This document shows positions 8,378 through 28,208 of a DNA stretch of 40,380 nucleotides, piece by piece; within the stretch, counting starts at the first letter, position 1; the number at the start of each line of letters is the position of its first letter. The notes under the pieces were generated by a model. The model was not told where the DNA came from, did not search any database, and saw nothing but the letters and a program-made list of their open reading frames with translations. Source of the DNA: a virus (taxonomy: Duplodnaviria > Heunggongvirae > Uroviricota > Caudoviricetes); IMG/VR virus record IMGVR_UViG_2744054872_000003, positions 1 through 40,380 of that record; one strand, 5' to 3'. The translations under genes and the position numbers were made by a program.

Positions 8378-8383
8378 AAACAA

Positions 8384-8400: not shown

Positions 8401-8412
8401 GTGACATGTCAC
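8401..8412. repeat. 12-bp palindrome GTGACATGTCAC, copy 1
   Basis: Perfect palindrome overlapping the stop codon of the 8409..8705 gene and abutting a terminator hairpin; identical copies at 25932 and 28197. Confidence 0.6.
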
Positions 8413-8705
8413 GTCCCTTTTCTGAATGATAGCCATTCGAAAAATGATGACATTCCACCGCAGACAATAGCAAAGATGATCCCACCAAAGAAGAGAAGGC
8501 CAGCCTGCCACCACTCCCACCGCCATACATCCACAGCACCAACCATACCAACAATCGCTCCAACAAATGGAATATAGCTCACGATGAAAGCAATGGGGGC
8601 TGCAATTATCCAGTGCAATCCCCACCATGATTCAAGCCCAGCCATAATTGCTGCCAACTGAAAAAGACCAACGACGATATAAACAATGAATCCTATAGCT
8701 TGCAT
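8409..8705 (-). CDS. Small multi-pass membrane protein
   Basis: 98 aa, three or four hydrophobic helices, Trp-rich loops; downstream of the virion gene block. Confidence 0.45.
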   Translation of the reverse strand: MQAIGFIVYIVVGLFQLAAIMAGLESWWGLHWIIAAPIAFIVSYIPFVGAIVGMVGAVDVWRWEWWQAGLLFFGGIIFAIVCGGMSSFFEWLSFRKGT

Positions 8706-8900
8706 GTAGTCACCTATTTACCCAGTAAAAATCAGAGGCCTCCCCTCAATAAGGCTTGCAACAAGAACTATTCCCTGCACAACAAAGATAAACCAGCAAA
8801 TAGCTTGAGTCTGAGGGTTAAGAAAATATTTGTAGCGGTCAATAAATAACAACCCACCAGAAATTATCACACTCAAAACAATTAAAAACACAACACTTCC

Positions 8901-11375
8901 TTATTGCGGAGTGACATCCTGAGGTCTCCACCAGTATGTCTGGTTAAACTCTTTCTTCGAACGTTGCTCCATTTTACGCAAATAGCCTGGTGAAAAATAC
9001 TCCTGCATCTGGTTAAAGATCATGTGATCGAGAGCCGCCTTCAAGTACCAGAGATTCGCACCAGGCATCAAACCTTTCCCCAGCTTAACCAGATCACCAC
9101 CAGTCTGCTCATTCTTCCCTTCCACAGCATTTAACGGTATGCCCTGAGCAATCTTCACTACGTCATCAACCAGACCAGCTACCGGGCCAAGCATCGACGC
9201 CAGCGCGCCGCTTCCGTACCTGGTGTGATCTGACAATAAAAAGTCACCGTAAAGGCCAAGACCACCACCTTTCAGTAGAGCACCAAGCCAGAATTTTGCG
9301 GCATCTTCTCCTGTCATCTCTCGAGGATTACGACCAGACGCAAGGTCGTTAAGTTGCTGCGACAAAGCACCAAGAATGGTCGTACTGGCAATAAACGTCG
9401 CAATATATGCCGCACGCCCACCAGCAGACGGCATACCCATAGCGCGTGACCAGTGACGCATAACCACCGAGATAGGGAACGATTTAAACAGGAAAACACT
9501 TCTCGTTAATTCACCTTTCCATGTTCCACGCTGAATACCAGAACCGGTTATCAGTTGCTCACGTGCTCCCGGTGTAATAACAGCCATATCAACTTCTTCA
9601 GTTACGGCACCGAGCAGTTTACGCATTGCCTCAAATTTCACGCGTTCAGGCTCACCAAGATGTTTAACTGCTGAATCAGGGATACGCATAATGCTTTCCG
9701 GTGTCAGCATCGTATTATTGCCGTTCCCCCAGTCCTCCTGTTGCGCCAGCCTCCATACGCTCCAGTCTGTGTCAGTAATCCCTTTGCTTTTCAGGATACG
9801 ATAATCAGAATCATCGAGGCTATGAAGGTCTGGTGTCCGTGACACTACTTCTCCCAGGCTTCCCATCATGGTTACGCCATAGGCGCGCTTGTGCGCATCT
9901 GACCATGCTGTAAGCCCACTGGCACGCATTACCGCCGTTGCAGCCCAACGAGACACAGACGGCCCCATATTATCCATCGCCCAGCGGTTAACGCTGCCAA
10001 GTAGAGATTCCATCGCCAGACCAGCGCGGCGCGCCCGCGCAAGCTCAGTACGGTTCGTTGGGTCCATAGCTTCAAGCTGGTTGCGGAATAACTGGTTCAT
10101 TGGAAGGTTGGTCACCTTCGCAGACAGATACATGGTTCCAAGATCAGAGAACGATGACAGCAACGCGGATCCGAGTCTGCTGGCAACCAGCCAGTTGCGG
10201 ATATTGTCAGACCATCGCGCGATGTGCGGATTCGCTACAGGCTGTGTCTTTCCGGAAATAAAGTTGTACAGATTCTCTGTGTTGTTCGCCAGCCGCTCGA
10301 CTTTACCGGTTTTACTCGGGTTAGCTGTTGCCGTTTCTGCCTTAACCTGATCAAGAAGGGAGCGGAAAACATGATCGGGGTTTGGACCATATGTTTCCAC
10401 CAGAGCAATATCTTTACTGATACCTTCCAGGTGACCGACCATGATTTCCCATAGAGAGCGATCGCCATAAAGTTGTTGATATTGGAGATAGGAATCTGCA
10501 TCTTTGAAATGTATCTGTCGTGATGCATTACCACGGTTAGCACGTGCGCCGGAAATTCGCATTCCGGTATCAGTAAGCTTATTCAGCCCACCAGTAGCGA
10601 TCGTGTTATAAGCCTCTCCAAGAAATGCAGACAACTCGGCATCGTTCATCAGTTGTCCATCGGCTCGGATATAATATTTGCGATCCAGCTTACCTATAAC
10701 ATCGCTAACCCACTTATCCTTTGATACCGCCCCAACCTTTTCCATAGAATGATGTTGAGGGATCCCCCAGTTTTCGAGATAGCCAATGTCCCCACCAGCA
10801 TCATTAAACCGGCGGCGCAGTAGATCTGTCACTTCTCTCCACGCCTTAGCACCTTTTCTTGCTTTAGCATTGCCAGTATTTTGCCCTCGCATTTCATATA
10901 CCAGGTCACGCACGCCAGTTTCATCTTCAAACAGGCCAAAAAAGCGAGGATCAACTGCTTCAAATGCCTCTTGCAATTGACTCAATGCATAATCACGAGT
11001 GGCTTTTGTTCTGGACTCCACAGAGAGGAAATTCGATTTACCGTCTGCATTAAAAGCAATAGTACGGTTAAGAGCGCCAAGTTTCCCATCAGCCCCTTGA
11101 TAGCTATTGATAAATTTATCCAATCTCTGACGTGCGGCTATAGTGAGGGCCACACGACGTTTCTTTAATGCCGCTTCTCGCTGTAATTCTTCAGATGCCA
11201 ATTGTGCTGCACGATATAGCCGCTCTGATTCGGAAAGTTGTCTCCACGACATCGGGTCATCACGAGCAATGGAGCGCATATTTCGATAAATGCGGTCTTC
11301 AATGTTCTGTATTTCTCGCGCCGTTAACGTGCGCTGCGCCGCCTGCTGGACCGCTTGTATACATTCCTGTCTCAT
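8901..11375 (-). CDS. Internal virion / ejection protein (large)
   Basis: 824-aa protein in the position T7-like genomes use for internal core proteins; no recognised catalytic motif. Confidence 0.55.
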   Translation of the reverse strand: MRQECIQAVQQAAQRTLTAREIQNIEDRIYRNMRSIARDDPMSWRQLSESERLYRAAQLASEELQREAALKKRRVALTIAARQRLDKFINSYQGADGKLGALNRTIAFNADGKSNFLSVESRTKATRDYALSQLQEAFEAVDPRFFGLFEDETGVRDLVYEMRGQNTGNAKARKGAKAWREVTDLLRRRFNDAGGDIGYLENWGIPQHHSMEKVGAVSKDKWVSDVIGKLDRKYYIRADGQLMNDAELSAFLGEAYNTIATGGLNKLTDTGMRISGARANRGNASRQIHFKDADSYLQYQQLYGDRSLWEIMVGHLEGISKDIALVETYGPNPDHVFRSLLDQVKAETATANPSKTGKVERLANNTENLYNFISGKTQPVANPHIARWSDNIRNWLVASRLGSALLSSFSDLGTMYLSAKVTNLPMNQLFRNQLEAMDPTNRTELARARRAGLAMESLLGSVNRWAMDNMGPSVSRWAATAVMRASGLTAWSDAHKRAYGVTMMGSLGEVVSRTPDLHSLDDSDYRILKSKGITDTDWSVWRLAQQEDWGNGNNTMLTPESIMRIPDSAVKHLGEPERVKFEAMRKLLGAVTEEVDMAVITPGAREQLITGSGIQRGTWKGELTRSVFLFKSFPISVVMRHWSRAMGMPSAGGRAAYIATFIASTTILGALSQQLNDLASGRNPREMTGEDAAKFWLGALLKGGGLGLYGDFLLSDHTRYGSGALASMLGPVAGLVDDVVKIAQGIPLNAVEGKNEQTGGDLVKLGKGLMPGANLWYLKAALDHMIFNQMQEYFSPGYLRKMEQRSKKEFNQTYWWRPQDVTPQ

Positions 11376-11380
11376 TTAAT

Positions 11381-13183
11381 TTAACCTCTCAAGAAACACG
11401 CCACAGCGACATCAAACAGACTGGAATCCTGTATTGCCTGCTCACTTTCCCTGTTCGCTTCATCCAGTACTTCACGCGCGCTGCGCGATTGTGGATTACC
11501 ATCATCATCCAGCACGGTGATTATCATGTCAGGTGATTCAAGCAGCGAGTCTTCAGCTATGCGCAGATCAATATCTCCTGCCTGATCCGCCATCATTTTT
11601 TGTTCTGCCTGTTGCAATATTTTATCAGGCTCAAAAGGAGCTACTTCGTCTGGCGCCCTGACATCTGCTGTTTTATAGAATGAAACAGCCTGAGCATTAA
11701 GTTCACTTTCTACCTGCAGTCGCCGTGCCAGTTCTGCTCGAGCTTCAAAAAACTGACCGCCAGGCTCATGCGGTGCCAACGCGTTACGAGAAAATTCCAG
11801 GCGTTCTTGTGCCTGCCGGATTCGTTGGTCAATATCGCGAAGTCTGGCCTGTTTATCTGATCGAGCACGAGATAAAGCCTTACCGCTACCGGTTGGCTCT
11901 TCTGCAAGAATTTGTGCGCGCTGTTCAGTGAGATTTTCAATAATTCGTTGGCTATTAGCGATTTCAGACTGGTAAACCAGTCTATCGCCACGCGGCAAAA
12001 GCTGCGCGGCCTGTTCTTCAAGCAACCGATTTTCTATAGCGCGCGCCGTTACTCCATCATCTACAGATGACAGAGCCTCATTAACTGCCTGAGAAAGCAG
12101 ACTCTTGCGCCCAGGAATTTCACTGAAAGATGCAGACTCAACAATGCTGGCAACGTCTACAGGTCTCCCCTGGCTAACATCAGACATGGCTTTTCGCAGA
12201 GCCTGAATGTGCGAATTACGCGAAAGCACGTTGATCGGCACACCGGGAGCAATATCAATTTCAGCATGATGAGCGGCATTCGCCGCCAGTGCAGCATCGA
12301 CATCAACTGGTGAAAAATTTGGTGCGCTTGTAGACTCGCCGCGAGAGTTAATAAATCTGCCGACACCACCAAACGCCACTCCAAGAACAGCATCAATAGC
12401 AATTGCCTGTCGATCCAACACATCATACTGATTAGCCATTTCGCTATAGCCACCATCACGAAGCGTTTTTGCAGTAAGCCCACGCTGTGCCATACCGAAC
12501 GCAATATTTGTACCTGCGGTATAGGCAATATCTGGCGTTGCACGTACTGCTGTTGCTGCGGCGCGTCGCACTGAACTTTCACCAGTCCGCGCAAGCTGAG
12601 CCGCCACACCTTCCGCCAGCGCACCACCAGCACGTAACCCGAGGCTCATAGGGATCAGTGTTCCGGCACCAGCAGTAATACCCTGCACTAATCCCGCTTC
12701 CTGCGCCGTCCTGAAATCAACACCCTGTGCTGTCAGCCGTTCAAACTCAGAAAAACCCTGTAGCGAAGTTACCGCCGCAGCACCTCCGACCGGACCACCG
12801 AGCGTTGTACCGACAACAGCCTGCCCGCCCATATCGAACAACCCATAAAGGACCTGCCCGGCGGTTCCGGTTGTCGCGGCATCAGGCGTCAGCCGCTTAA
12901 CCTGCTGCTCTGCTAGTTTTCTCTGCTCAGCAATGTATGAAACTGAAGTGTCATTGAGCGAGGTGTTTTCGTTAACAAACTGAGCAATCGGGGATACGAT
13001 TTTATCCATCCCTGCCCATAGCAACTGATCTGGCTTTGCCACCAGCCCGGAGTACAAACCAGACAATGCCGCTCCTACAGCATTGTCGAAAAAACCAACA
13101 TCGCTGTTAAAGCCAACTGGATTTGATGCTGCTTCGTCAAGCTGCTGATTCTGGTTTACTGGATTAAGGCCAAAGTAACTCAT
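11381..13183 (-). CDS. Internal virion / ejection protein
   Basis: 600-aa Gly/Ala-rich protein within the core-protein block. Confidence 0.5.
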   Translation of the reverse strand: MSYFGLNPVNQNQQLDEAASNPVGFNSDVGFFDNAVGAALSGLYSGLVAKPDQLLWAGMDKIVSPIAQFVNENTSLNDTSVSYIAEQRKLAEQQVKRLTPDAATTGTAGQVLYGLFDMGGQAVVGTTLGGPVGGAAAVTSLQGFSEFERLTAQGVDFRTAQEAGLVQGITAGAGTLIPMSLGLRAGGALAEGVAAQLARTGESSVRRAAATAVRATPDIAYTAGTNIAFGMAQRGLTAKTLRDGGYSEMANQYDVLDRQAIAIDAVLGVAFGGVGRFINSRGESTSAPNFSPVDVDAALAANAAHHAEIDIAPGVPINVLSRNSHIQALRKAMSDVSQGRPVDVASIVESASFSEIPGRKSLLSQAVNEALSSVDDGVTARAIENRLLEEQAAQLLPRGDRLVYQSEIANSQRIIENLTEQRAQILAEEPTGSGKALSRARSDKQARLRDIDQRIRQAQERLEFSRNALAPHEPGGQFFEARAELARRLQVESELNAQAVSFYKTADVRAPDEVAPFEPDKILQQAEQKMMADQAGDIDLRIAEDSLLESPDMIITVLDDDGNPQSRSAREVLDEANRESEQAIQDSSLFDVAVACFLRG

Positions 13184-15693
13184 TGCGGAATATCTCCGGA
13201 GAATCTCTGACGCTTCTGTGTCAGATTAAGAACAACGGGAGAACCATCATCTTTCAGCAGATAACCAGTACCAAGTTTCACCAGGTACTGACTATCGCCG
13301 TAACTTTGCAAACCATACTGACCAGGCGGTGTTTTTATCCCTGAGCCGACAACTTGTTCATTCCAAGCCTGATTAACCTGCTTATCGAATTGCTCTGCAG
13401 ACATTCCCCACGGCAAAAGGACATTCCCCATTCCGTTATAGTCATGCACGCCACCTGTAGCTACGTTAACAGCCTGTTTCCAGATATCATTGTCAATTTC
13501 GCCTGATACCACGCCTTTTTTCGCCATCACACCAGCGTAATAGTCCTTTGCGATCTCGTATGCCATTGATGCCCCCTGAGCATCACCAGCAAATGCATCC
13601 TTCACCATGTCAGAAAACTCAAGGCGAAGATCAGCATCTTTAGGCATCGGAATACCTTTCGCATCATCAGTACCTTTACGAGCCGCCGCGCCAGCAAGAA
13701 TTGTCTGCGCAGCGGTTTCAGGTGACACGGAAACATCCGGATTAAACCAGTTTTTTTCTGCCAAAATACCACCAGGTTTATCCATCAGTATCCCGGCAAC
13801 GGCAGCAGATGGAGCGTTGGCACTGATCTGCTGTAGTGCTGACATATACACCTGCCCACCACCAGTGCTTTGCCTGATGGTATCGAGATATGCTGCCTGT
13901 TGGGAAACGGGCGCATCACGAAAGAAAACACCGATCTGATTGGCCTCGTCTTTGGAAAAGAACGTCAGTGGAGTGCCATATGACTTGGCAAGGTCACTGA
14001 CCTGAGCGGCACGCAAGGCAACGCTCTGTCCAAAGTTATCCTTATTGCTCATGTCGATAGGCTTTGCCTGTCCGGCGGCAAGAGAGAACTGCACAGGATC
14101 CGATTGCCGCTGCTTTATCACCTGATTTGCAGCCGAAACAACGTTGTCATAAAGAGCTGCGCGTGCCGCATACCCCTCCCCTGTCTCACCAGTATCCGGG
14201 CGTAATTGCTCAACATATGCTGTAATGCTGCTTGTCGGCATGTTGCGGAAAGAGCCTATATACTGTCCGGCGATCTGCGTATTTCTGAACTCGGTATATC
14301 GCAGGTTTCCTTCTCTGACGCCATAAGCTGCAATAAAATCAGCCTCACCAGGTGGATTAGGAAATTCAACGCCACGCATATACGCAGCCGTCGCATCGCG
14401 AACCTGGCTGTCAATCATCGTTTTATATTCAGCCTGCTGCTGCCGACGCAGTTGATCCGCCTGTCGCATAAAACTTGCCTGCGCCTCAGGAGAGGCCGCA
14501 TCGAATGCTGCATTACCGGTATAGCGTTTGATGTTGGTTGGAATTGTTGATAAACCAAGTGCTGCACTGACACCAGCAGTTAACTGCTGATCACTGTATG
14601 GCTGGCTACCGTTCTCATGATGGATAATTGCTGCACAAAGCGCCTTCAGGGTATCAGGATTTGATGCATCGAGAGGCTCATCAGCAGAAACGCCAAGTTG
14701 TTCGCACACTGCTTTGATATACGACATAGTGTCATTTTTATCAGTAGGCGGTGCCCAGCGATTAATTATCTCGCTGACGGTATCAATACCCTGCCTCTGA
14801 TACGACATCAGGTTCCGCCCTAATGCACGAATCCCGTGTTCAGGTGTTTCGAATTTAGCAAATCGACCATCATCACCGGTCTGGCCTACCCACGGATTAG
14901 TTTTGCTGTATTCGAGATTTCCTGGGTTATTGTTGCGTATGCCACGGGCACGCTCGGAAGAGTCACTATCTGCTACAGCACGGCGAGCTCCAGCAGCAGT
15001 ATCACTTAACTCGCCATTACTTTGGATGAATGCGGTCGCATTGTTTGCCGACCAGTGGGACAATGCGGCATCAGCAACCTTCTCTTTAAACTCGATTTTC
15101 TTGGCCTGGATTTGCTCGTCGCTCCAGCCATGCGCAATGCCGTAATCCTCAATTTGCTGGAAAGTTTGCTTATTAGCCAATACGTATGCGGCGTTGTCGC
15201 CATACAATGCTGCGGCATTTTTACCATTGTTCAGCAGCGTCGCCTGAAACTGGCCTTCTTCGTAGGCATTTATTTGCCCTATCTCGTGTCGCCCGGCCTG
15301 CGTAGTGAACTGAATGCGCTGCTGCTGCGCCTGCTGCATGAAAGCATTACGAGCCTGTTCATCAGGCAGCGACATAGCCAGTTTCTCGACCTGGGCATCA
15401 AACTGCTGCGTATACTCCTGACCTTTTCCAATAGCATTTTTCCCTTTCAGGTTAAGCAAACCTGTTTCAGGGTTATTCAGCAGATCGCTGCTTATCTGGC
15501 TTAAGCTAAGAGAAGCATCCTGAGCCATAGCAACATTCGCACGCTGTTTTGCCTGCGCAATAATACCTGCATATTGCTCTGCAACATCGCCAAGTACATC
15601 ACCGACATTTGGTGTCTGAAACGATGAGAATCCCTGCGTCGAAATCCCTCTGCTCTGAACCTGACGGCCCGATGTTGTTGGTACAACTGGCAT
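13180..15693 (-). CDS. Internal virion / ejection protein with a possible enzymatic central domain
   Basis: 837 aa; central block GIRNNNPGNLEY...WVGQTGDDGRFAKFETPEHGIRAL looks like a conserved globular domain, possibly cell-wall-directed; translationally coupled to the next gene. Confidence 0.5.
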   Translation of the reverse strand: MPVVPTTSGRQVQSRGISTQGFSSFQTPNVGDVLGDVAEQYAGIIAQAKQRANVAMAQDASLSLSQISSDLLNNPETGLLNLKGKNAIGKGQEYTQQFDAQVEKLAMSLPDEQARNAFMQQAQQQRIQFTTQAGRHEIGQINAYEEGQFQATLLNNGKNAAALYGDNAAYVLANKQTFQQIEDYGIAHGWSDEQIQAKKIEFKEKVADAALSHWSANNATAFIQSNGELSDTAAGARRAVADSDSSERARGIRNNNPGNLEYSKTNPWVGQTGDDGRFAKFETPEHGIRALGRNLMSYQRQGIDTVSEIINRWAPPTDKNDTMSYIKAVCEQLGVSADEPLDASNPDTLKALCAAIIHHENGSQPYSDQQLTAGVSAALGLSTIPTNIKRYTGNAAFDAASPEAQASFMRQADQLRRQQQAEYKTMIDSQVRDATAAYMRGVEFPNPPGEADFIAAYGVREGNLRYTEFRNTQIAGQYIGSFRNMPTSSITAYVEQLRPDTGETGEGYAARAALYDNVVSAANQVIKQRQSDPVQFSLAAGQAKPIDMSNKDNFGQSVALRAAQVSDLAKSYGTPLTFFSKDEANQIGVFFRDAPVSQQAAYLDTIRQSTGGGQVYMSALQQISANAPSAAVAGILMDKPGGILAEKNWFNPDVSVSPETAAQTILAGAAARKGTDDAKGIPMPKDADLRLEFSDMVKDAFAGDAQGASMAYEIAKDYYAGVMAKKGVVSGEIDNDIWKQAVNVATGGVHDYNGMGNVLLPWGMSAEQFDKQVNQAWNEQVVGSGIKTPPGQYGLQSYGDSQYLVKLGTGYLLKDDGSPVVLNLTQKRQRFSGDIPQ

Positions 15694-15705
15694 CTTATTA
15701 TCCCC

Positions 15706-16245
15706 TTATCGACCGGTTGGAGTGCCAACAGCAGCAGAAATCGGCGCAGCCTTCTGAGAGAACGGGCTCCACGTTCCTCCGCCCATCTGGTATGCACCGT
15801 ATGCTTTTAGTGGTGCCGTTAACAAAGTGCTGGTCATCGATGATTTAGCAGCCGACTGAGCAGCAGCCCCCTGTGCCTGAGCATTCATTCCCTGAACCTG
15901 ATACCCATATGCCTCACGCTGAGCATTATTCACTGTCGTTAACGCATCAAGAGTGCCGAACTGAGCATTATCCGCAAAAACGTCAAGAGCTGTTCCGCTA
16001 CTTAATTCCGCACCGGTAGCCCCCATAGTAGCCGCCGCAGTGCCTGAGCGTTGACGCATTTCACGACGACGCTGATCCGCTTCAATATTCCCACGATTGA
16101 TTGAATCCTGTGCCTGAGCTTCAGCAATTTCAGCATTCCGATCAGCTACGGCTGACTGGTATTTTGCCTGCTTGCTCTGGCTGTACATTGATGCGGCTGT
16201 GGATGCCACTGTGACTGCAACCAAAGCGATGGCTGGGTTACACAT
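15706..16245 (-). CDS. Internal virion protein (T7 gp14-like position)
   Basis: N-terminal hydrophobic helix then Ala/Gln-rich sequence; sits between the putative nozzle protein and the core proteins. Confidence 0.45.
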   Translation of the reverse strand: MCNPAIALVAVTVASTAASMYSQSKQAKYQSAVADRNAEIAEAQAQDSINRGNIEADQRRREMRQRSGTAAATMGATGAELSSGTALDVFADNAQFGTLDALTTVNNAQREAYGYQVQGMNAQAQGAAAQSAAKSSMTSTLLTAPLKAYGAYQMGGGTWSPFSQKAAPISAAVGTPTGR

Positions 16246-20108: not shown

Positions 20109-20124
20109 ATACACTCCTGCAATA

Positions 20125-20140: not shown

Positions 20141-20158
20141 TTGTCTGATTCGCGAGGC

Positions 20159-20494
20159 TTACACGCCCAGTTCTTTACGCTTATCTGCGATCTTCTCGCG
20201 GAGCGTTTCGGCTTTGGCGTTATGGTGTGGCTTCTCGTTAAAGAGCAATTCGTACTCTTCACGGAGCTTATCCAGTTCACCATCATCTGACACATCGTTG
20301 ATGATTTTGGTGCTGGTTGCTGCCATTGACACCTTTCCTGCAACTTTTGCTTTTGCCTGTCTGGCTGCATCGTTAACAGGTTCCAGTGCGCTACCAGGCT
20401 CACCTTCGTATTCGATTTCTGCCCCCTCCGGCCACAGTGTGTTATGGATATGAGAGAGGCGCAGAACGCGGTATCTTGGTTTCTCACCTGACAT
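20159..20494 (-). CDS. Hypothetical head protein
   Basis: AAGGTGA RBS before ATG at 20494. Confidence 0.4.
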   Translation of the reverse strand: MSGEKPRYRVLRLSHIHNTLWPEGAEIEYEGEPGSALEPVNDAARQAKAKVAGKVSMAATSTKIINDVSDDGELDKLREEYELLFNEKPHHNAKAETLREKIADKRKELGV

Positions 20495-20504
20495 CGATAT
20501 CACC

Positions 20505-20942
20505 TTAACCAGTTACTTTTGAGCGGATCGGATACGGCGTATTGGCATCAACATCAAGACTGATACCAGCAGTGAATTCGCCAGCCGTTAGTGGGCCAGT
20601 TGCGACGGAGTAGTTAACACGCAGATATCGCTGAACACCGGCAGGCACCTTTGCAGAAACAACTCGTTTACCTGCTGTCAGGGCGGTCTTTGCCAGTGCG
20701 CCACTATCATAAATAGTGGTCCATGAGCTGTTATTCTCACTCGTCTGCAACTGGATGTTTACAGTTGCATCACCGCTTGCCGCGGCGGCTGTGTTAACCA
20801 GCGCCCAAAACTCAAGCGGGTAACCCACGCCGATATCACGACGTTTTCCGTCAATTGGACCGAGATCGATTACGTCAGTAGAAGCCGCGGTATTCGTAAC
20901 CGCCTGAGCTTCGGAGAACATCAACAGTTTGTCGGTGATCAT
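20505..20942 (-). CDS. Capsid decoration / cement-like protein
   Basis: About 145 aa, immediately after the major capsid gene; N-terminus MITDKLLMFSEAQAV resembles small capsid accessory proteins. Confidence 0.45.
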   Translation of the reverse strand: MITDKLLMFSEAQAVTNTAASTDVIDLGPIDGKRRDIGVGYPLEFWALVNTAAAASGDATVNIQLQTSENNSSWTTIYDSGALAKTALTAGKRVVSAKVPAGVQRYLRVNYSVATGPLTAGEFTAGISLDVDANTPYPIRSKVTG

Positions 20943-20958
20943 CTTCTTTCTCCATTAG

Positions 20959-20978
20959 TGGGTCTGTTACGACCCACA
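20959..20978 (-). terminator. Hairpin immediately after the major capsid gene
   Basis: GTGGGTC-GTAACA-GACCCAC in the 51-bp gap after the capsid stop; no clear U-tract. Confidence 0.35.
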
Positions 20979-20993
20979 GGTTAATAACAGGCG

Positions 20994-21986
20994 TTACACC
21001 ACGCGGGCTTCTGTTTCCAGAAGCGCATCAGTTTCACGGATTGGTACACCACGGAATGACGTCCACCACTCGCCTTCTGTCTCTTTTACGCTGATCGCCA
21101 GAGATGTTTTCTCCAGAGATTGCAGATCAAGAGCCTGGCCTACAGTGCGGTTCATGTAGAACACCGGGCGACCCATGCCACGGTTTGGAATGCGATGCAG
21201 TGCTTTAACCATCAACTTCGCAATATTTGCGGCAGAGGAAGGTTCTGAAAGATTGCTGACATCGATGTTTGCAATGCGAACAACATAACGCCAGTCACGC
21301 AGAGCAAGTCCGTTATCCCATTTGTAATGGGTGCGATAGCCTTCGTACTTGCCGCCATTAGCATCTTCCAGTGTCACCTGGCCTTTATCTTCCATCTGGA
21401 TGCCAGCCTTCTGCCCTTTCGGGAAGATGCCATGCACGGTGTTTTCGCCCCACACCACTAACCAGATTGAGGTGTTATCTGTACCCGTGCCACCAGCATC
21501 AATGATGTTCTGAGCATTACCCGCAGACAGGCTGGAATAGCGGGAGGACAGTCCCATAAACTGCTGAGGGTTAACGCTGGAATCACCATAAAACAGCGTC
21601 TGCGCCATCTGCTGATTCATCGCTTCAATAAATGCGCGGTCTTCAGACAGGCGGAATTCGGCGGTATTGCCGTTCAGATCAGCCAGTGACTTATCGACTT
21701 CAGCATAGGTTTCCAGCATGCCAACGGAATCGGTTACCTGCACTGTGGTTGATTTGCTTGGCTGTACGCCATAGTTCAGCAAACGCCAGGTAGCTGAAGG
21801 TAAACCAGAACGAATGGTGGTTCGGTGTCCGGTAGGAAGGTTCCCTTCGACAAAAGGCATATCCTGAAGGATCGGGTTAGTTTGACCGAGAAGCTCGATA
21901 ATCTTATCGACTTTCCCGTTTGGATCGACGCGCTTACCCCAGTCAGCCAGCGTTAGCGCAGTTAAGCCTTTAACAGCCATTGTCAT
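20994..21986 (-). CDS. Major capsid protein
   Basis: 330 aa, between scaffold and decoration genes; size and position match podovirus major capsid proteins. Confidence 0.7.
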   Translation of the reverse strand: MTMAVKGLTALTLADWGKRVDPNGKVDKIIELLGQTNPILQDMPFVEGNLPTGHRTTIRSGLPSATWRLLNYGVQPSKSTTVQVTDSVGMLETYAEVDKSLADLNGNTAEFRLSEDRAFIEAMNQQMAQTLFYGDSSVNPQQFMGLSSRYSSLSAGNAQNIIDAGGTGTDNTSIWLVVWGENTVHGIFPKGQKAGIQMEDKGQVTLEDANGGKYEGYRTHYKWDNGLALRDWRYVVRIANIDVSNLSEPSSAANIAKLMVKALHRIPNRGMGRPVFYMNRTVGQALDLQSLEKTSLAISVKETEGEWWTSFRGVPIRETDALLETEARVV

Positions 21987-21994
21987 TTCCTCTC

Positions 21995-22696
21995 TTATTT
22001 GCCATAGAGCACTTCGGCCGCACTACGCTGGCCTTCATTACCACCGGTGACCATGCCATCTTCAGACATCGCCTTTCCGATTTTCACGAACGTTTTGACC
22101 AGATCAGGGTGATTACCCAGCCCGGTGGTGTTCAGATATTCTTTGAGTTCAGGTGTCCCGAACTGGTCAAGCGCACGCTGTGCGACGCTAAGGTTAGAAA
22201 TCAACTTGTCGCCACCGATTTCTTTGTCAGCTTTTACATCCGCAGCCCACTGCTCGGTTGTTTTCTGCCAGGCTTCTGCCTGGCGCTGCTGAACACCTGC
22301 CAGAATCTTCGGATAAGCATCAACCAGCTTTTGCGCTTGCTCGTTGGTCAGGTTAAGTTCTCGCGCCACCGGCTCGAATTCCTTCAACGCTTCTGTATCC
22401 AGATCTACGCCTTCGGCAGCCTGAAACTCGTACTTCTCAGGCGCACCCTCTGGTTTATCGCCGCCCTTTTTTTCATCCTGCTTATCGTTTTCAGGCTTTT
22501 TGTCATCAGCAGGTTTATCGCCATCAGCAACAGGTTGTGGCTTATCACCTTCCTGTTGTGATGGATCACCAACTGGAGCAGGGGTATCACCTGCAGGCGC
22601 TGACGGTTCTGACGCAGCCGGAGCTGCTCCGCCATCAACTGGTTGCTCATTGCAAAGACGGCGATACAGCAAACGCTCAAATAAATTCATGATCAC
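21995..22696 (-). CDS. Scaffolding protein
   Basis: Highly acidic, Pro/Ala/Asp/Lys-rich low-complexity N-terminal half, helical C-terminal half; directly upstream of the capsid gene. Confidence 0.6.
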   Translation of the reverse strand: MIMNLFERLLYRRLCNEQPVDGGAAPAASEPSAPAGDTPAPVGDPSQQEGDKPQPVADGDKPADDKKPENDKQDEKKGGDKPEGAPEKYEFQAAEGVDLDTEALKEFEPVARELNLTNEQAQKLVDAYPKILAGVQQRQAEAWQKTTEQWAADVKADKEIGGDKLISNLSVAQRALDQFGTPELKEYLNTTGLGNHPDLVKTFVKIGKAMSEDGMVTGGNEGQRSAAEVLYGK

Positions 22697-22989
22697 TCCT
22701 GTTCACTGGCCTCTTTGGCCATCTTCAAATACTGTTCAGGGCAATGCGCCATAACGCGCTGAAACAGTTCAAGCGCCAGATTGCGTTGCCCCTCATTAAA
22801 TGCCATTGCCATAGCGTCCATCGGTGAGATAGCGGAAAACACACGGCCTTTCTCCAGCACAGACCAGACAACGCGACGCCCCTGTTCACTGCTCATGACA
22901 AAGCGAATGTCATCAATTTCACGCTGCTCCATGTCACGTTGCTTACGGGCGTTTTCTTCTTTCAGTTGATCGTCTTCGTAATCTGTCAT
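22693..22989 (-). CDS. Hypothetical small acidic protein between portal and scaffold
   Basis: 98 aa; ATGA coupled to both neighbours. Confidence 0.45.
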   Translation of the reverse strand: MTDYEDDQLKEENARKQRDMEQREIDDIRFVMSSEQGRRVVWSVLEKGRVFSAISPMDAMAMAFNEGQRNLALELFQRVMAHCPEQYLKMAKEASEQE

Positions 22990-24665
22990 TGTGATTGCCC
23001 ACCCTGACCACTAACTGCATTCGCCATAGCTGACAAAACACTCGGATCCGAAGTTTTAGCTTCGCTTAGCGTCTTGGCGCCCTGTGCCGCCGCCATCCCC
23101 ATCGCCATCATTTGTTGCTGCTGTTGCTGCTGTGCCCGTTGCTGGCGAGCCTGCTCAACCTGTTCCTGCGGAACAATGACGGTTGGAGACACTCCGGACA
23201 TATCAGCGAATGCATCGATCGCCTGATCAACGTTGAGTTTGTCGAGAGCTTCTGGTTTCGCTTGCGCAAGTTGACCAATGAAGTTGACCGTAGACGCCAG
23301 ACTGGACAGGCCGATAGACTTCTGCGCCTGAGCCATGACGGAAATGTATTCGACCTTCAGGGGCATACCTTCCATCGCGTCAGGCGGTGGCGGCAGCATG
23401 TTTTTACGCACCATCATCGAGAAAGCGCGGTCAATGAGAGGATTAAGACATTCGTCGTTCAGACGCTCCAGAACCGGCCCCAACATCAGAAGTTTTTCTT
23501 CTTTCATTTCGATCACCGCTTCAACAGGCATCGAGCGGGTATTGATGTTCTGCAACATCATGAACAGATCGACAAAGTAGGCGCTGTTAATGATTTGACG
23601 AGTGTCCTGAATGTCTGCCACCAAATCTGCTGTACTGGGGTTAACCAGATAAGCAGGCCTGAAGCCATCCTGACCAGTAATCTGATCGATATACGTGATG
23701 TCGCCAGGAAGAAGGGAGGCGCGCTGATTCTTGAGGGAAGTCGGAGCAACCATCGGCGGATTGGTGGCTTTATCAATCAACTGCGACTTGCGCTTCTGGA
23801 GAAGCTGCAATGCCTTAACAGGTCCAAGCGCCAGCATACCCGGGCATGATGATCCATAAACATCTTCGCCGTTAACTTCCCAGCGCGGAGCCATAATTGG
23901 AAACTCATCGAATCCGGACTCACGCAACAACTTGTCGTTATCGCCACCAACCTCGTAATAAACCGATTTGAATGGCTTGTTCTTGCTATCCAGCTTCGAT
24001 GTATCGCGGTCAATGTTCGGGTAAACCGAATGCATCACTTCAATCCACTTCTCGTAGGTGCCGCTTTCCCACATGCTTTTTACGGATTCGCTGACGTTAT
24101 TTAGCCCGAACTCCTGAACAAGCTGACGAACAGTCATAGAGAACTTGCGAAAACAGGTGTCCACACTGCCACGAGGTGAGTTAGCCAGGTAGTAACTGCC
24201 TATCGGGAATGGCATTGTGCGAATGATGTCCTCGTCATCCTCCAGCACCGCCATTGCACCAGTGCTGTATGTGCCGAGGCTTCCGTATAACTGCGGAAGA
24301 GACTGGTAGAGATTCGACTTATTGAACATATCGTTCATGCGGTTCTGCACCGCCTCAAGCCACAACTTAACAGGGCCATAATCCATCATTTCAGGATCTG
24401 TCGTAGCCAGGCGAAACCACGGACGCGCGGGGCTTGTGATGCCTGACATCATGCCGCTGGCGAGAGTGCGCGCCGCCATAGTCCCGGTCGAATCAATAAT
24501 GCGTGTATTGCGTCGATCGTTACGGTTGACCTCAGAAGTCAGAAAGCGGGAACCACGCGGGTTGATGTAATCACTCAACTCGCGCCAGTGCGGCTCGAAC
24601 GACTGACGCTCGCTTTCAAGTTGTGCGAACTGTTTGTTCAATCGCTCTTTAGTTGTTTCCGCCAT
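22986..24665 (-). CDS. Portal (head-to-tail connector) protein
   Basis: 559 aa with poly-Gln acidic C-terminal tail; position between terminase and scaffold; size matches T7-type portals. Confidence 0.75.
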   Translation of the reverse strand: MAETTKERLNKQFAQLESERQSFEPHWRELSDYINPRGSRFLTSEVNRNDRRNTRIIDSTGTMAARTLASGMMSGITSPARPWFRLATTDPEMMDYGPVKLWLEAVQNRMNDMFNKSNLYQSLPQLYGSLGTYSTGAMAVLEDDEDIIRTMPFPIGSYYLANSPRGSVDTCFRKFSMTVRQLVQEFGLNNVSESVKSMWESGTYEKWIEVMHSVYPNIDRDTSKLDSKNKPFKSVYYEVGGDNDKLLRESGFDEFPIMAPRWEVNGEDVYGSSCPGMLALGPVKALQLLQKRKSQLIDKATNPPMVAPTSLKNQRASLLPGDITYIDQITGQDGFRPAYLVNPSTADLVADIQDTRQIINSAYFVDLFMMLQNINTRSMPVEAVIEMKEEKLLMLGPVLERLNDECLNPLIDRAFSMMVRKNMLPPPPDAMEGMPLKVEYISVMAQAQKSIGLSSLASTVNFIGQLAQAKPEALDKLNVDQAIDAFADMSGVSPTVIVPQEQVEQARQQRAQQQQQQQMMAMGMAAAQGAKTLSEAKTSDPSVLSAMANAVSGQGGQSQ

Positions 24666-24679
24666 TTCAATGACTCCGG

Positions 24680-24886
24680 TTACTGACCAAGCAGCGTTTT
24701 ACCGCTGGTATTAGCGGTTGATGTGTCGCCCTGAGAACCGGTAAGCAGCGTAGAACTACGACCAGCAGCAGCGCGACGGCGACGGGTTTCTTCGTCGCGG
24801 GCATCAACAACGGCGGCATCCTGCTCCTGTGGTGCTGCCTGAACTTCTGGTGTTGCAGGCACTGATGGTGAGCTACCCATGCACAT
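24680..24886 (-). CDS. Small hypothetical protein upstream of the portal gene
   Basis: 68-aa charged protein; GGAG RBS; chosen over the overlapping 24667..24906 frame, which has implausible composition. Confidence 0.3.
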   Translation of the reverse strand: MCMGSSPSVPATPEVQAAPQEQDAAVVDARDEETRRRRAAAGRSSTLLTGSQGDTSTANTSGKTLLGQ

Positions 24887-24954
24887 ATCAATGACTCCGT
24901 ACGCAATTAAATTATTACCAATTTAACCACATGTGATTTATTTATCGTAGATAC

Positions 24955-24991
24955 TTGACATTTAACGCACTAATTATTACCTTTCAGGTAA
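24955..24991 (+). promoter_or_regulatory. Candidate promoter (TTGACA-N17-TACCTT) with overlapping operator TTACC-TTTCA-GGTAA at 24977..24991
   Basis: Consensus -35; -10 lies inside the operator half-site; reads toward the tRNA gene. Confidence 0.45.
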
Positions 24992-25313
24992 GCAAAGAGT
25001 TCATTCCGGTTATTAACCTGACTGGCTTGTCGTTAAATTGAACAGGTGGGGTGAGCTTTTATTTTGAGCAGTACGGTGTATGGCACATGCGCCGATAGCG
25101 GTCTGGATACGTTTAAGGGGCACCCTCCCTTGCTCGGGCAAACGAACCAGGTAGCCGGAATGTGCAAGTCGAGCGGTTTTATTCCGCGCACGGGGATTCA
25201 CCATCCCGGCGATTCGGTGTGACACCTCGGAAGAGACGAGGGTGCAACGATGAGAGCATTTATGGAGCCGCGACAAAGTGTGGTGCCTTAACAGGCTAAG
25301 TGCTCTCAGCGTT

Positions 25314-25390
25314 GTGGCATTAGCTCAGTTGGACAGAGCAACCGCCTTCTAAGCGGTTGGTCGCAGGTTCGAATCCTGCATGCCGCGCCA
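25314..25390 (+). tRNA. tRNA-Arg, anticodon TCT (reads AGA)
   Basis: Hand-folded cloverleaf: 7-bp acceptor stem GTGGCAT/ATGCCGC (one G-U), D-arm GCTC...GAGC, anticodon stem ACCGC/GCGGT with loop CTTCTAA, T-arm GCAGG-TTCGAAT-CCTGC, discriminator G, encoded CCA. Confidence 0.85.
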
Positions 25391-25553
25391 GAATCACGCC
25401 TAAGGACCGTGATGCCAGAAGTTCCAGGGGCTTGGCGGTGATGGTTTCCCTTGAAGGACTATCACAGCCCTTTTTACAGCAGGACGCCATTGCGATGACT
25501 TCATGCTGTAAACCCGTACAGCCACGGAAGGCATAACTCATTGCTTCCAGTTC

Positions 25554-25577
25554 GCCCGGTTCGCCGGGCATTTTTTT
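25554..25577 (+). terminator. Rho-independent terminator after the tRNA region
   Basis: GCCCGG-TTCG-CCGGGC tetraloop hairpin followed by T7. Confidence 0.7.
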
Positions 25578-25588
25578 AAGGTGAGATT

Positions 25589-25927
25589 ATGAACGACCAG
25601 CAAATCGAAAAAGAAATCGTTGAGAAAGGCAAAACCGCCCCGCGCGTTACGCCAGACCATATCGAAAGCATTATTCTTGCGGAAACGTACTTCACTGCTG
25701 CTGATGGAGCTATTGCAACTGGCGATGACTATCACGACAGTTTGGCTCTGCTGACATTTTGTGTATTGACTCTACAAAATGGCTTCACCGTCACCGGAGA
25801 GAGCGCCTGTGCAAGCCCGGAAAACTTTGATGCAGAAATTGGTCGGAAGATTGCCAGGCAGAATGCTGTAAACAAAATATGGATGCTTGAAGGTTACTTG
25901 CTGAAGCAGAAGTTAAGCGAGCAATAA
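25589..25927 (+). CDS. Gp49/Sf6 gp66-like small phage protein
   Basis: 112 aa; AAGGTGA RBS; overall sequence resembles the small Gp49-like family often found next to terminase genes. Confidence 0.5.
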   Translation: MNDQQIEKEIVEKGKTAPRVTPDHIESIILAETYFTAADGAIATGDDYHDSLALLTFCVLTLQNGFTVTGESACASPENFDAEIGRKIARQNAVNKIWMLEGYLLKQKLSEQ

Positions 25928-25931
25928 CACC

Positions 25932-25943
25932 GTGACATGTCAC
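25932..25943. repeat. 12-bp palindrome GTGACATGTCAC, copy 2
   Basis: Five bp after the Gp49-like stop and just before the 25948..25975 terminator. Confidence 0.6.
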
Positions 25944-25947
25944 AAAC

Positions 25948-25975
25948 AGCCAGCCTATGAGCTGGCTTTGTTTTA
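25948..25975 (+). terminator. Intrinsic terminator between the Gp49-like gene and the convergent terminase gene
   Basis: CCAGC-CTATGA-GCTGG hairpin followed by CTTTGTTTTA. Confidence 0.5.
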
Positions 25976-26017
25976 TCCTCACCAGAGGATATCAACGACA
26001 TTATCCCCACCAGCGGA

Positions 26018-27493
26018 TTAAGCATAGGGATCGTAATCTGTAATGGCCTTGCCTTGCTGGTTCTGCTGACCTGGAATTCGCAGACGCTTCGACACAGGGA
26101 AAGCAAACGTCAGCAATAGCGCATCGCCTTTACCCGGCGAACGCCCAAGACGCTCTTTGATATCTTCCTTCGGTTCGATAACGATTTTACCGTCCACACG
26201 AACTTTGTACTCTGCCGCCGACAGGTCGTCTGCAGTTTCCTGGTCATCCAGCATGCCGCCCAGCCTCAGCCATGTCTTACATGAGTTGAACATCTCCCCA
26301 CGCTTGTTAAGCATCTGCGGGTCAGTGGACGCACCGCCGAACGGAACAAGTTGCCATGTACGTCCCCAGCCATCACCGATTGACTTCAAACCGGTTCCGT
26401 AACCGAAGTCGATGAACACCGCGTCAGCCTGGTACTGGTCTTCAAAGTCAGCGATACGCTTCGCCATAATCAGATCGTCGGTGGTCTTGTTGCCGGTCCA
26501 CAGCACCTTACTGTGCAGCCCCTGCCGCAGGTATATCGCCGCGTCATCAACACCGGAGTATGCAGGGTCAACGCCGATTATCACCGGAGCATGTGCCACC
26601 TGCGCAGCAGTTACCACCCGTTTCATTGCCTCGTCAGTAAGACCGGTAGGGATAAACTGCAATTCAGATGCATCAGGGAATATGCCGCGCACACGGATTT
26701 TAACGAAGTCGCTGTCTTCCCCGTAGTCATCAACCCATTTCTGCAACTGCTGTTTGTTGGTGCCTTCCACCGTCCGGCTGTCAATCTGCGCAGTTTTCCA
26801 GCGGTGTTTATATTTGCGGAAACATTCGCGGAAACGTCCGGTATTACGCGTCGGGTTTCCGAACGCCACCCAGATAATCTCAGTGTCTTCGTCCGTCAGC
26901 GCACCCTCTGCTACCTCCCACACCAGATCGGCAATGTTGGATGCTTCGTCGAAAACCACGATGATGCGTTTGCGCTCGTTGTGTAGTCCGGCGAATGCCT
27001 CAGTGTTGTGCTCAGACCAGGGGATTGCGTCAGCTCGCCACCGCTTGTCGTGCCCAGGATCATTGCTGTACATCGCGGTAGCGGTACAGGTAAACCAGTC
27101 TTTCGTGATGGCAAGGTTCGACCACTTGATAATTTCCGGCCAGGTCTTCGTTCGTAGCTGGTTGTCGGTGTTGGCGGTCACCACGACCTTACAATCCTCG
27201 CAAGTGGACATGCCCCAGTTGATCAGCATTGAGATGAATGCGGATTTACCAATACCGTGACCAGAAGCGCGTGCCAGCATAAGCGGCTGATATCGCGTCT
27301 CTGGATTCTGCAGGTGATCACGTATCTCTCGGAACGCATCAGCCTGCCACTGACGTGGACCTGTGGCATGTGCTAATTCAGTCCCCTCTTCCCCCCACGG
27401 GAACGCATAGAGGGCATAGCCAAGCGGATCGTGAGTGAACCCTGCAATATCTTCGATTAACTGCTCTTCAGGAGATAACGCTGCATCTGTCAC
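26018..27493 (-). CDS. Terminase large subunit
   Basis: Walker A-like ASGHGIGKS near the N-terminus, acidic nuclease-type C-terminal half, 491 aa; overlaps the small-subunit gene by ATGA. Confidence 0.85.
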   Translation of the reverse strand: MTDAALSPEEQLIEDIAGFTHDPLGYALYAFPWGEEGTELAHATGPRQWQADAFREIRDHLQNPETRYQPLMLARASGHGIGKSAFISMLINWGMSTCEDCKVVVTANTDNQLRTKTWPEIIKWSNLAITKDWFTCTATAMYSNDPGHDKRWRADAIPWSEHNTEAFAGLHNERKRIIVVFDEASNIADLVWEVAEGALTDEDTEIIWVAFGNPTRNTGRFRECFRKYKHRWKTAQIDSRTVEGTNKQQLQKWVDDYGEDSDFVKIRVRGIFPDASELQFIPTGLTDEAMKRVVTAAQVAHAPVIIGVDPAYSGVDDAAIYLRQGLHSKVLWTGNKTTDDLIMAKRIADFEDQYQADAVFIDFGYGTGLKSIGDGWGRTWQLVPFGGASTDPQMLNKRGEMFNSCKTWLRLGGMLDDQETADDLSAAEYKVRVDGKIVIEPKEDIKERLGRSPGKGDALLLTFAFPVSKRLRIPGQQNQQGKAITDYDPYA

Positions 27494-28083
27494 TGATTAC
27501 CATCCTGACGTTCTTTGAGTCGCTTCCTGGCTGCCGCTATGCGATCAGCAATTGTCACATTCACATTAACATCCAGGCGTTCTTTGAATGCGTTGACGTC
27601 GACGTGCTTACCAATCAGTTCTAGGTTCTTCACCTTGTCAGGCCATTTAATTTTTTTGAGGATTGTCTCTATCGAATCCTCGTTCATGTTCATGATGGTC
27701 GATGACAGATCAAAGCCACTAAGCGTAGTGCGCCAGATTTTCGGCCACTCACGGATTGGTTTAAGGCTCCCATCGTCGTTGAGGATGTCGATCACGTCCA
27801 TCTGGTCGATCTCCACCAGGCGCATGAGAACGTAATCAGCACTGACGCGCATTCGTTTGTTGCGCTCCTCCATCAACTCGGCAATCCGTTTTTGAATGCG
27901 TTCATCGCGCATCATGACACTGGCTTTAACTGCCGCTGTATTTGGTGAGAATCCTGCGTTAATCGCTGCCTGAGTCTGGTTTTCAGGCGTTTTGATGTAT
28001 GACTGGCAATAAGCCTCCTGCATTGCTGTTAGTGGCTTAAATTGCGTTGATTTGCGTTTATAGGTTTTAGGTTCAGCAGGCAT
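27490..28083 (-). CDS. Terminase small subunit
   Basis: TAMQEAYCQSYIKTPENQTQAAINAGFS fits the terminase small-subunit HTH pattern; start taken at ATG 28083 with GGTGG RBS, because the ORF-track N-terminal extension translates a repeat region. Confidence 0.7.
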   Translation of the reverse strand: MPAEPKTYKRKSTQFKPLTAMQEAYCQSYIKTPENQTQAAINAGFSPNTAAVKASVMMRDERIQKRIAELMEERNKRMRVSADYVLMRLVEIDQMDVIDILNDDGSLKPIREWPKIWRTTLSGFDLSSTIMNMNEDSIETILKKIKWPDKVKNLELIGKHVDVNAFKERLDVNVNVTIADRIAAARKRLKERQDGNQ

Positions 28084-28085
28084 AA

Positions 28086-28118
28086 TAACCACCGTGGTAA
28101 TAGTTACCGTTGTGGTAA
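28086..28118. promoter_or_regulatory. Two tandem operator-like sites upstream of the terminase operon
   Basis: TAACC-ACCGT-GGTAA at 28086..28100 (one mismatch) and TTACC-GTTGT-GGTAA at 28104..28118 (perfect), giving the appearance of a GTGGTAATAGT direct repeat. Confidence 0.5.
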
Positions 28119-28136
28119 TAGTACCATGCAAAATAA

Positions 28137-28155
28137 AGCCGCCATAGTTGGCGGC
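28137..28155 (-). terminator. Intrinsic terminator between the nin-like region and the terminase genes
   Basis: GCCGCCA-ACTAT-GGCGGC hairpin followed on the minus strand by TTTATTTT. Confidence 0.55.
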
Positions 28156-28196
28156 AGTATTCAAAACCCATCAAATTCATCATGCATAATCTACTC

Positions 28197-28208
28197 GTGA
28201 CATGTCAC
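28197..28208. repeat. 12-bp palindrome GTGACATGTCAC, copy 3
   Basis: Overlaps the stop codon of the 28205..28546 gene, upstream of the 28137..28155 terminator. Confidence 0.6.

Follow-up and report, generated by a model that had tools for sequence, protein, structure and literature searches.

A perfect 12-bp palindrome, GTGACATGTCAC, recurs at three gene ends of the prophage held in IMG/VR record IMGVR_UViG_2744054872_000003, which we analysed over positions 1 to 40,380 (the window). Comparison with phage records by megablast identified the window as a complete epsilon15/phiV10-like (Uetakevirus) prophage. The exact copies of the palindrome lie at 8401..8412, 25932..25943 and 28197..28208 (sites 1, 2 and 3, respectively), and the third sits on the stop codon of a small minus-strand gene, 28205..28543, that encodes a candidate DNA-binding protein of 112 amino acids. 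We propose that this protein would bind the palindrome as a symmetric dimer and that the occupied site, with the adjoining intrinsic terminator, would act as a boundary at the end of a transcription unit; we give the proposal about an even chance of being right. Judged from the sequences, protein and palindrome form a new putative regulator–operator pair of a generally known kind, that of the phage ribbon-helix-helix (RHH) regulators. Its placement at stop codons and terminators is unusual, and its likeness to matS, the site read by MatP, was unexpected.

The window holds no further copy of GTGACATGTCAC, even when up to two mismatches are allowed. A uniform base model predicts 40380/4^12 = 0.0024 copies, and none of 100 dinucleotide-preserving shuffles of the window contained even one. 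The exact scan and the shuffles thus confirm the three perfect copies, against about 0.002 expected, that had been reported in an earlier inspection of this DNA (the sequence-only reading).

Flanking sequences, the list of open reading frames (ORFs) and a terminator scan gave the same architecture at all three places: a gene end, the palindrome and an intrinsic terminator. At sites 1 and 3 the TGA stop of a minus-strand ORF (8409..8705 and 28205..28546) lies inside the palindrome in identical register, G-TGA-CATGTCAC, and at site 2 the TAA of the plus-strand ORF 25589..25927 is separated from it by 4 nt. The palindrome therefore does abut or overlap a stop codon each time, as had been claimed. 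The terminators occupy 8383..8400 at site 1 (minus strand; gap of 0 nt; AGGCCGCTTTCGCGGCCT followed by TGTTTTT, with a T-run on the minus strand only), 25948..25967 at site 2 (plus strand; gap of 4 nt; AGCCAGCCTATGAGCTGGCT followed by TTGTTTT) and 28138..28155 at site 3 (minus strand; gap of 41 nt; highly conserved genus-wide). The sequence-only reading had placed a terminator hairpin within 3 to 45 bp of each palindrome; a hairpin follows at all three, and the true gaps are 0 to 41 nt. A correction of strand is also needed, as sites 1 and 3 belong on the minus strand. The site 2 terminator serves the plus-strand moron, which its T-run faces; for minus-strand late transcription the order is hairpin then palindrome, without a good U-tract. 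The palindrome itself does not have the properties of an intrinsic terminator (RNA fold of -1.2 kcal/mol, no U-tract), whereas the three adjoining hairpins do. Covariance models of Rfam 15 had no match at the three sites and matched only a C4 antisense RNA, isrK and a tRNA-Arg in the window.

Each palindrome closes a different unit. Late genes lie on the minus strand, as the annotations of phiV10 and epsilon15 indicate. Site 1 ends the late structural operon, towards which the anti-repressor operon runs on the plus strand; site 2 separates TerL from the Gp49/Sf6-gp66 moron that converges on it; and site 3 ends the early-right operon, of which the gene for the 112-aa protein is the last. These borders had been described, correctly, as those of an accessory island, a tRNA/Gp49 island and the late-operon entry.

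The palindrome is conserved at these junctions in close relatives. In epsilon15, SPN1S and Tyrion, whose conserved genes share ≈ 80% DNA identity with the window, it is exact at all three equivalent junctions, and phiV10 has two exact copies and a one-mismatch copy that spans its record ends. The phiV10 record starts inside site 3, and we considered a cos or pac end there; this was rejected, as the record was just opened behind its last stop codon and a genome with three such ends would be broken into pieces. Of the close relatives in IMG/VR, 77 of 79 have the exact palindrome at site 3 and 70 of 77 at site 1, where the other seven carry single-base variants. The hairpin and palindrome block of site 2 is exact in 55 of 78, differs by a single base in 7 and is replaced by other cargo in ≈ 15. 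Natural half-site variants of the 12-mer include GTGAAATGTCAC and GTGACATGCCAC. The sequence-only reading had named absence of the palindrome from the same junctions in close relatives as grounds for abandoning it; we looked, and the palindrome is present.

The surroundings of the sites are less constant. In the intergenic alignment at site 3, the palindrome is a conserved island followed by a variable spacer. Site 1 is flanked by at least three different upstream genes and has at least three downstream contexts, and the ending TAA-CRCC-palindrome at site 2 is shared by at least five different convergent morons. It is exactly at the block of stop codon, palindrome and terminator that homology between relatives is lost, and this block might be a crossover point for morons and operon-end genes, the module-boundary recombination site of the sequence-only reading. 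The coincidence of mosaic breakpoints with the block is circumstantial evidence for that reading, and any conserved intergenic element would resemble a mosaic boundary. We hold recombination to be very improbable. No recombinase or nuclease co-occurs with the motif, some sites are intragenic, and 12 bp is too short for homologous exchange of the Red/RecET type. In addition, half-sites and spacing stay strict across regulators that are only 30% identical, which argues for recognition by a protein.

Two further observations concern individual sites in relatives. The site 3 terminator (28138-28155) is nearly invariant, loop included, across relatives from Escherichia, Salmonella, Enterobacter, Citrobacter and Klebsiella, and the spacer beside it exists in two versions that differ by ≈ 19 nt. 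Such conservation exceeds the needs of a plain terminator, and the element may have a second role. In epsilon15, a two-mismatch copy, GTGACATGGCAT, at 26618-26629 overlaps the TGA that ends the Rz spanin gene, where the lysis cassette also ends. Its register is that of sites 1 and 3, and it could be either a chance match or a fourth site that has decayed.

The motif travels with the gene for the 112-aa protein, here called the regulator. Searches with tblastn and further searches for encoding loci found homologues in unrelated phages (epsilon15-like, ZF40, N15, P2-like, Vibrio and lambda-like), accompanied by the generalised motif GTGAC-NN-GTCAC, of which GTGACATGTCAC is the epsilon15-type version. 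The Pectobacterium myovirus ZF40 differs in its virion genes and encodes a regulator 69% identical; it carries the exact 12-mer three times, once 2 nt past the regulator stop. N15 has three copies of GTGACTGGTCAC, one overlapping the stop of gp46; in a Yersinia P2-like phage GTGACGCGTCAC overlaps the regulator stop; and Vibrio phage K233 has three sites. Loci of the Vibrio type carry two to four sites, and one of these precedes the start codon of TerS by 23-31 nt. At a convergent Bro-N/helix-turn-helix junction, a lambda-like phage carries a pair of copies 23 bp apart, and in one contig the motif lies on the regulator's start codon. Over 35 species-level loci with a homologue we counted 52 matches in 652 kb, where 0.6 were expected, and in ≈ 27 of the 35 the motif was at the regulator stop or no more than 36 nt from it. 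Homologues of only 23-38% identity are still accompanied by the motif; lambda has no copy. The reverse test started from 80 IMG/VR stretches picked only by the 14-mer CGTGACATGTCACG: 18 encode a regulator homologue within the few kb returned, in a sample of short stretches that mixes true sites with random matches.

The composition of the motif was also informative. Its half-sites are invariant and its centre varies (AT, CT, AC, GC, TG and GG). In 1.14 Mb of homologue loci, half-sites with a 2-nt centre matched 88 times (≈ 1.1 expected), and centres of 0, 1, 3, 4, 5 and 6 nt gave 0-1 matches each. Invariant half-sites, a free centre and rigid spacing together are the signature of double-stranded DNA read by a symmetric dimer and not that of RNA hairpins. 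We infer from co-occurrence, from the fold predicted for the protein and from the site's symmetry that the palindrome is probably the operator of the 112-aa protein. The sequence-only reading had suggested a protein-binding site and had named the Cys-rich product of 28205..28546 as the candidate binder. Both suggestions are well supported, if indirectly, by the co-occurrence of the motif with homologues of this protein in unrelated backbones, by the invariant 5-bp half-sites, the variable centre and the strict 2-nt spacing, and by the copy that normally lies over the regulator's own stop. Searches of the searchable literature for the motif and its variants returned no relevant description, only unrelated primers.

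These data also bear on the idea that the sites are read by a host factor, MatP or another, or act as RNA, for instance as a 3'-end stabiliser or a translational operator, their linkage to the phage gene being mere hitch-hiking. The half-sites are matS-like, and the motif, with a TGA and an ATG inside it, frequently overlaps the stop or the start of a gene. Such a role is nevertheless most improbable in our view. The stem bases are invariant and the 'loop' varies, the reverse of the pattern expected from an RNA hairpin; the fold of -1.2 kcal/mol does not compete with the terminator stems; and, as stated above, Rfam recognised nothing at the sites. An RNA hairpin or an alternative antiterminator structure was likewise rejected by folding. 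As to a host factor, the 3-nt spacing of matS is found at chance level (1 match versus 88 for 2 nt), and true matS is avoided by prophages (PMC3603311).

The predicted structure of the regulator fits its proposed site. In alignments, the N-terminal segment is basic, with R8 and R13 nearly invariant, the core is strand-helix-helix, and four cysteines are conserved. AlphaFold2 gave a confident model (predicted local distance difference test score, pLDDT, of 92), whose predicted parts are an N-terminal basic helix, an RHH fold and a Cys4 knuckle (C79, C82, C91 and C99). The model shows the strand-helix-helix of ≈ 45 residues that characterises the Arc/MetJ/CopG class, and Arc (1arq) is among its structural neighbours. 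The perfect dyad, the invariant half-sites and the rigid spacing are consistent with the ribbon of an RHH dimer lying in the major groove. Foldseek searches of PDB and BFVD found nothing significant except a fragment of the same family, and a sequence search of PDB found no relatives, its best matches being spurious phycobilisome linkers.

The regulator belongs to PHROG 536, 'transcriptional regulator', and has no Pfam match. Its counterparts are gp55 of phiV10 and gp49 of epsilon15, and gp46 of N15 is related. This small family comprises 776 clusters at 90% identity and 159 at 50% identity, and members that have a name at all carry generic ones ('hypothetical protein', 'phage protein' or 'transcriptional regulator'). 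The homologues found here are from phages of Enterobacterales, Vibrio or Aeromonas and extend over podo-, myo- and siphoviruses, P2-like and N15-type phages and a Mu-like locus (L253).

The site of MatP, matS, is the 13-bp GTGACRNYGTCAC with a 3-nt centre (PMC6907758, Table 2; PMC3603311), and it is contacted by the RHH of MatP (PMC12756933). The outer half-sites GTGAC/GTCAC are the same in matS and in the phage motif, as mostly are the adjoining R/Y positions (GTGACA|TGTCAC); both binders are RHH proteins (by prediction for the phage protein), and both kinds of site are few per replicon. The phage motif differs from matS in being strictly 12 bp long with a 2-nt centre, and it does not conform to the matS consensus: the 3-nt spacing occurred once in 1.14 Mb, which is chance level, versus 88 matches for 2 nt. 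The two proteins differ as well. MatP has a four-helix bundle and a C-terminal coiled coil, whereas the phage model has neither and carries the Cys4 knuckle instead; hhalign of the 112-aa protein against E. coli MatP was not significant (E 0.12). By architecture and by detectable homology, the phage protein is thus not a member of the MatP family. Finally, matS sites lie in the chromosomal Ter region and the phage sites at gene ends on phage DNA, and Bobay et al. found no matS in 500 prophages (PMC3603311).

This likeness raises two ideas. In one, dimers at the two to four sites of a genome would pair through their C-terminal domains, as in MatP/matS bridging, and fold insulated loops, such as a 2.2-kb terminase loop between sites 3 and 2. 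We regard looping as quite unlikely: besides the insignificant hhalign score and a model without four-helix bundle or coiled coil, some genomes (Yersinia phages) have a single site only. The other goes further and is a long shot. The RHH/Cys4 protein and its 12-bp 'matS-minus-one' sites might be a MatP/matS counterpart carried by phages, by which the phage genome would be divided into domains insulated by protein-defined boundaries. Such a system could end or insulate transcription without an RNA signal and interfere with the DNA-organising host machinery that reads matS-like sequence (MatP and complexes of the MukBEF type of structural maintenance of chromosomes proteins), the half-sites being shared by ancestry or mimicry and not by coincidence.

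Across phages, the sites are found mainly at gene ends. The stop codon of a long ORF lay within -15 to +4 nt of the site in 191 of 208 matches. By gene arrangement, 66 non-redundant sites were scored as tandem (29), convergent (17), divergent (2) or intragenic (17, some of them artefacts of crude ORF calling). When 154 non-redundant sites were scanned, a strict terminator was found within 75 nt of 37 and at 0-12 nt from 24, and the terminators at 0-12 nt comprise at least seven hairpins of unrelated sequence. In other phages, many sites lack a terminator and lie just upstream of a promoter or inside genes. The position of the sites is that of a terminator or an insulator and not that of a typical promoter operator. 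That the palindrome controls termination, as the sequence-only reading had it, is plausible: the adjacency at 0-12 nt to so many unrelated hairpins speaks for it, and the many sites without a terminator do not.

The sites near promoters could mean that the regulator is a repressor or activator of the Arc/Mnt kind, tuning the anti-repressor module and nearby promoters, with terminators adjacent only incidentally because intergenic space is scarce. Arc and Mnt are RHH regulators of ant. As in P22, the protein here is a small phage RHH protein, by prediction, with a short symmetric putative operator, and its sites often lie beside anti-repressor operons; site 1 of the window and the tandem sites of locus L247 abut the 3' ends of Ant/Bro-N operons. 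In N15 the site at 28550 is 24 nt upstream of the -35 element of a promoter (TTGACG-18-TAGAGT) that heads the c4-type immA operon, and in four loci (L089, L090, L095 and L097) the site lies 2-7 nt upstream of a LexA-boxed promoter. The operators of Arc and Mnt, however, have another sequence and overlap promoters in a divergent control region, whereas the sites here lie at 3' gene ends and terminators, and the present protein has an additional N-terminal basic helix and Cys4 domain. Only 2 of the 66 non-redundant sites are in divergent promoter regions, and no convincing promoter adjoins any of the three sites of the window. The use of the palindrome as a -35 element was examined and dropped, with only 9/12 matches at two sites. 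Where a site does sit between a stop codon and the next promoter, its centre is at about -43 to -66 and the distances are not helically phased, as would suit an insulator more than an activator. Moreover, unrelated hairpins form terminators at 0-12 nt too often for this to be incidental. Promoter control therefore seems to us distinctly unlikely.

Several details of these neighbourhoods are recorded here. In L089, L090, L095 and L097 (≈ 10336-10450; Citrobacter, Pseudocitrobacter, Erwinia and Kluyvera), the LexA-boxed sigma-70 promoter and a small ORF (85 aa in L089) lie between the palindrome and TerS. Prophages of Serratia and Symbiopectobacterium (L102, L104 and L105) have a LexA box directly after the regulator stop and no palindrome there. 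Of the GTGACTGGTCAC sites in N15 (L086), at 28550 (upstream of the immA promoter), 33237 and 39269, one lies within repA and another covers the stop of gp46. Some 300 nt downstream of the last site, an unannotated gap contains a LexA box (39564) that may head an SOS-controlled antirepressor gene. In ZF40-like prophages (L085, at 5125 and 7622; L098, L099, L101, L102 and L104), two copies are intragenic, in an early-left ORF of ≈ 100 aa and in cII. Both are read in the frame xGT GAC ATG TCA C (C-D-M-S), and their nucleotides are exact through synonymous positions while the flanking codons diverge. The ATG within the palindrome was considered as the start of the ZF40-like early gene and rejected, as an in-frame upstream ATG with a strong Shine-Dalgarno sequence makes the site intragenic.

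Among known systems, the stoperators of mycobacteriophage L5 and cluster A resemble the palindrome in placement: they are short protein-binding sites scattered outside the immunity region, typically in tiny gaps at gene ends, thought to stop elongating polymerase. The palindrome sites likewise lie in short gene-end gaps outside promoters, and we think that they may work in a similar way. Stoperators differ in being asymmetric, oriented with transcription, present at 20-30 per genome and bound by the immunity repressor; the sites here are palindromic and number 1-4 per genome. Nor is the motif shared with the operators of the immunity region, which are ATTACC-N5-GGTAAT (34808, 34870 and others), and the immunity region contains no copy of the palindrome with up to two mismatches.

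The surroundings of site 3 recall a different system, the lambda Q protein with its binding element and tR'. In both, the early genes end with that of the regulator, after which come a DNA site, a terminator and the late genes. The regulator might thus act as a local antiterminator, engaging RNA polymerase from the palindrome through its Cys4 domain so that the terminator is read through, at site 3 from early-right into late genes. The regulator gene stands right before a terminator that is strong and conserved, with TerS behind it, which is where late antiterminators are classically encoded, and the polarity of palindrome then terminator holds at all three sites. The Cys4 motif recalls the zinc-binding Q and Ogr proteins. 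We nevertheless consider antitermination unlikely. The protein lacks a Q-family signature (no Pfam match to Q or Ogr); the only promoter-like match at the site takes the palindrome as -35 and, at 9/12, is not convincing; and extra copies lie at operon ends, many sites being without a terminator. N15 encodes a separate, true Q-like protein (gp40), and phages of the P2-like, Mu-like and lambda-like types in which the family occurs bring their own late regulators. Read-through at site 1 or 2 would yield RNA antisense to Ant or TerL, and the operators discussed next imply separate late promoters.

The order at site 3 is regulator gene, conserved terminator, two operators of the immunity repressor, Rep (ATTACC-N5-GGTAAT; 28085..28119), and TerS, the terminase small subunit and first late gene downstream (27490..28083, minus strand). 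The Rep motif is distinct from the palindrome, and the epsilon15 record annotates the equivalent site. Operators of this type also precede the lysis genes (3289), the tail-fibre gene (6045) and the block from gp3 to the structural genes (24976). With a Rep operator before each, the late region consists of several separately controlled units and not of one operon, and the position of the operators directly upstream implies that the units are under direct repressor control. Units with their own operators (3289, 6045, 24976 and 28085/28103) start independently and need to be insulated from each other.

A boundary at the sites could supply such insulation. As the product of the last gene in the early-right operon, the regulator would be a delayed-early protein, and its RHH/Cys4 dimer would then occupy GTGAC-NN-GTCAC where three transcription units have their 3' ends: in the early-right operon, at the TerL/moron junction and in the structural operon. 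The bound protein would be a roadblock or insulator and, together with the adjoining intrinsic terminator, would stop RNA polymerase from leaving one unit for the next. The boundary would limit both read-through into late units separately controlled by Rep and antisense transcription into convergent genes. Reading function from placement only, we favour such a boundary over antitermination, looping and recombination.

Several points weigh against this proposal. The pairing of protein and site is guilt by association, and four loci with a homologue (L250-L253) have no motif nearby, the Mu-like L253 having no full motif. A roadblock upstream of a perfectly good terminator seems redundant, and at site 2 it would also face late transcription leaving TerL. 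About 9% of the close relatives carry sites with a one-base mutation, so the sites are not indispensable to the resident prophage. Some sites lie inside genes (the C-D-M-S codons of ZF40-like prophages and repA of N15); with the mutant sites, these make the gene-end placement a strong tendency and not a rule.

Late-gene control and operon insulation are essentially unstudied in epsilon15/phiV10-like phages, a group that includes O157 typing phages and serotype-converting Salmonella phages; the published work on vB_EcoP_ZX5 deals with Rep, Ant and Int only. A protein family without a Pfam model is now paired with a precise DNA motif, which opens the family to direct tests. If the boundaries do depend on the protein, transcription termination in temperate phages would gain a layer that is itself regulated, and the swapping of morons at exactly these points would be accounted for. 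The identity of the half-sites with those of matS raises an evolutionary question about the origin of MatP specificity. The motif is also a compact marker for annotating transcription-unit ends and the regulator family in prophages.

The genes next to sites 1 and 2 are as follows. The last gene of the late operon, whose TGA is inside site 1, encodes a membrane-type protein of 98 aa (8409..8705, minus strand; PHROG 3075) and differs among relatives. Running towards site 1 from the other side is the SOS- and Rep-controlled anti-repressor operon (6045..8377, plus strand), composed of the Rep operator at 6045, a LexA box at 6100 (CTGTATAAATATACAG), isrK, the C4 antisense RNA, Ant (6555..7394, plus strand; the anti-repressor) and two further ORFs. 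The Hfq-binding RNA isrK matched at 6477-6553 (plus strand; 74 bits in Rfam), just upstream of Ant, and the C4 antisense RNA at 6573-6659 (plus strand; 79.5 bits). With both matches beside Ant, the prophage carries an anti-immunity operon of the P1/N15 type controlled by c4 RNA. At site 2, the moron gene 25589..25927 (plus strand) belongs to the Gp49/Sf6 gene 66 family (PF13876, E 1.8e-34) and ends 4 nt before the palindrome. The moron island that separates TerL from the head genes also contains a tRNA-Arg(TCT) gene at 25314-25390 (plus strand), oriented against late transcription.

The full set of Rep operator motifs in the window is at 3289, 6045, 24976, 28085/28103, 31703/31765, 34096, 34808 and 34870, and the epsilon15 record annotates sites equivalent to these. 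The lysis cassette is separated from the prophage end by two cargo genes, 109-627 and 643-1182, which lie on the plus strand, opposite to that of the lysis genes; they match PHROG 1277 (DNA methyltransferase-like) and PHROG 1094 (of unknown function), respectively.

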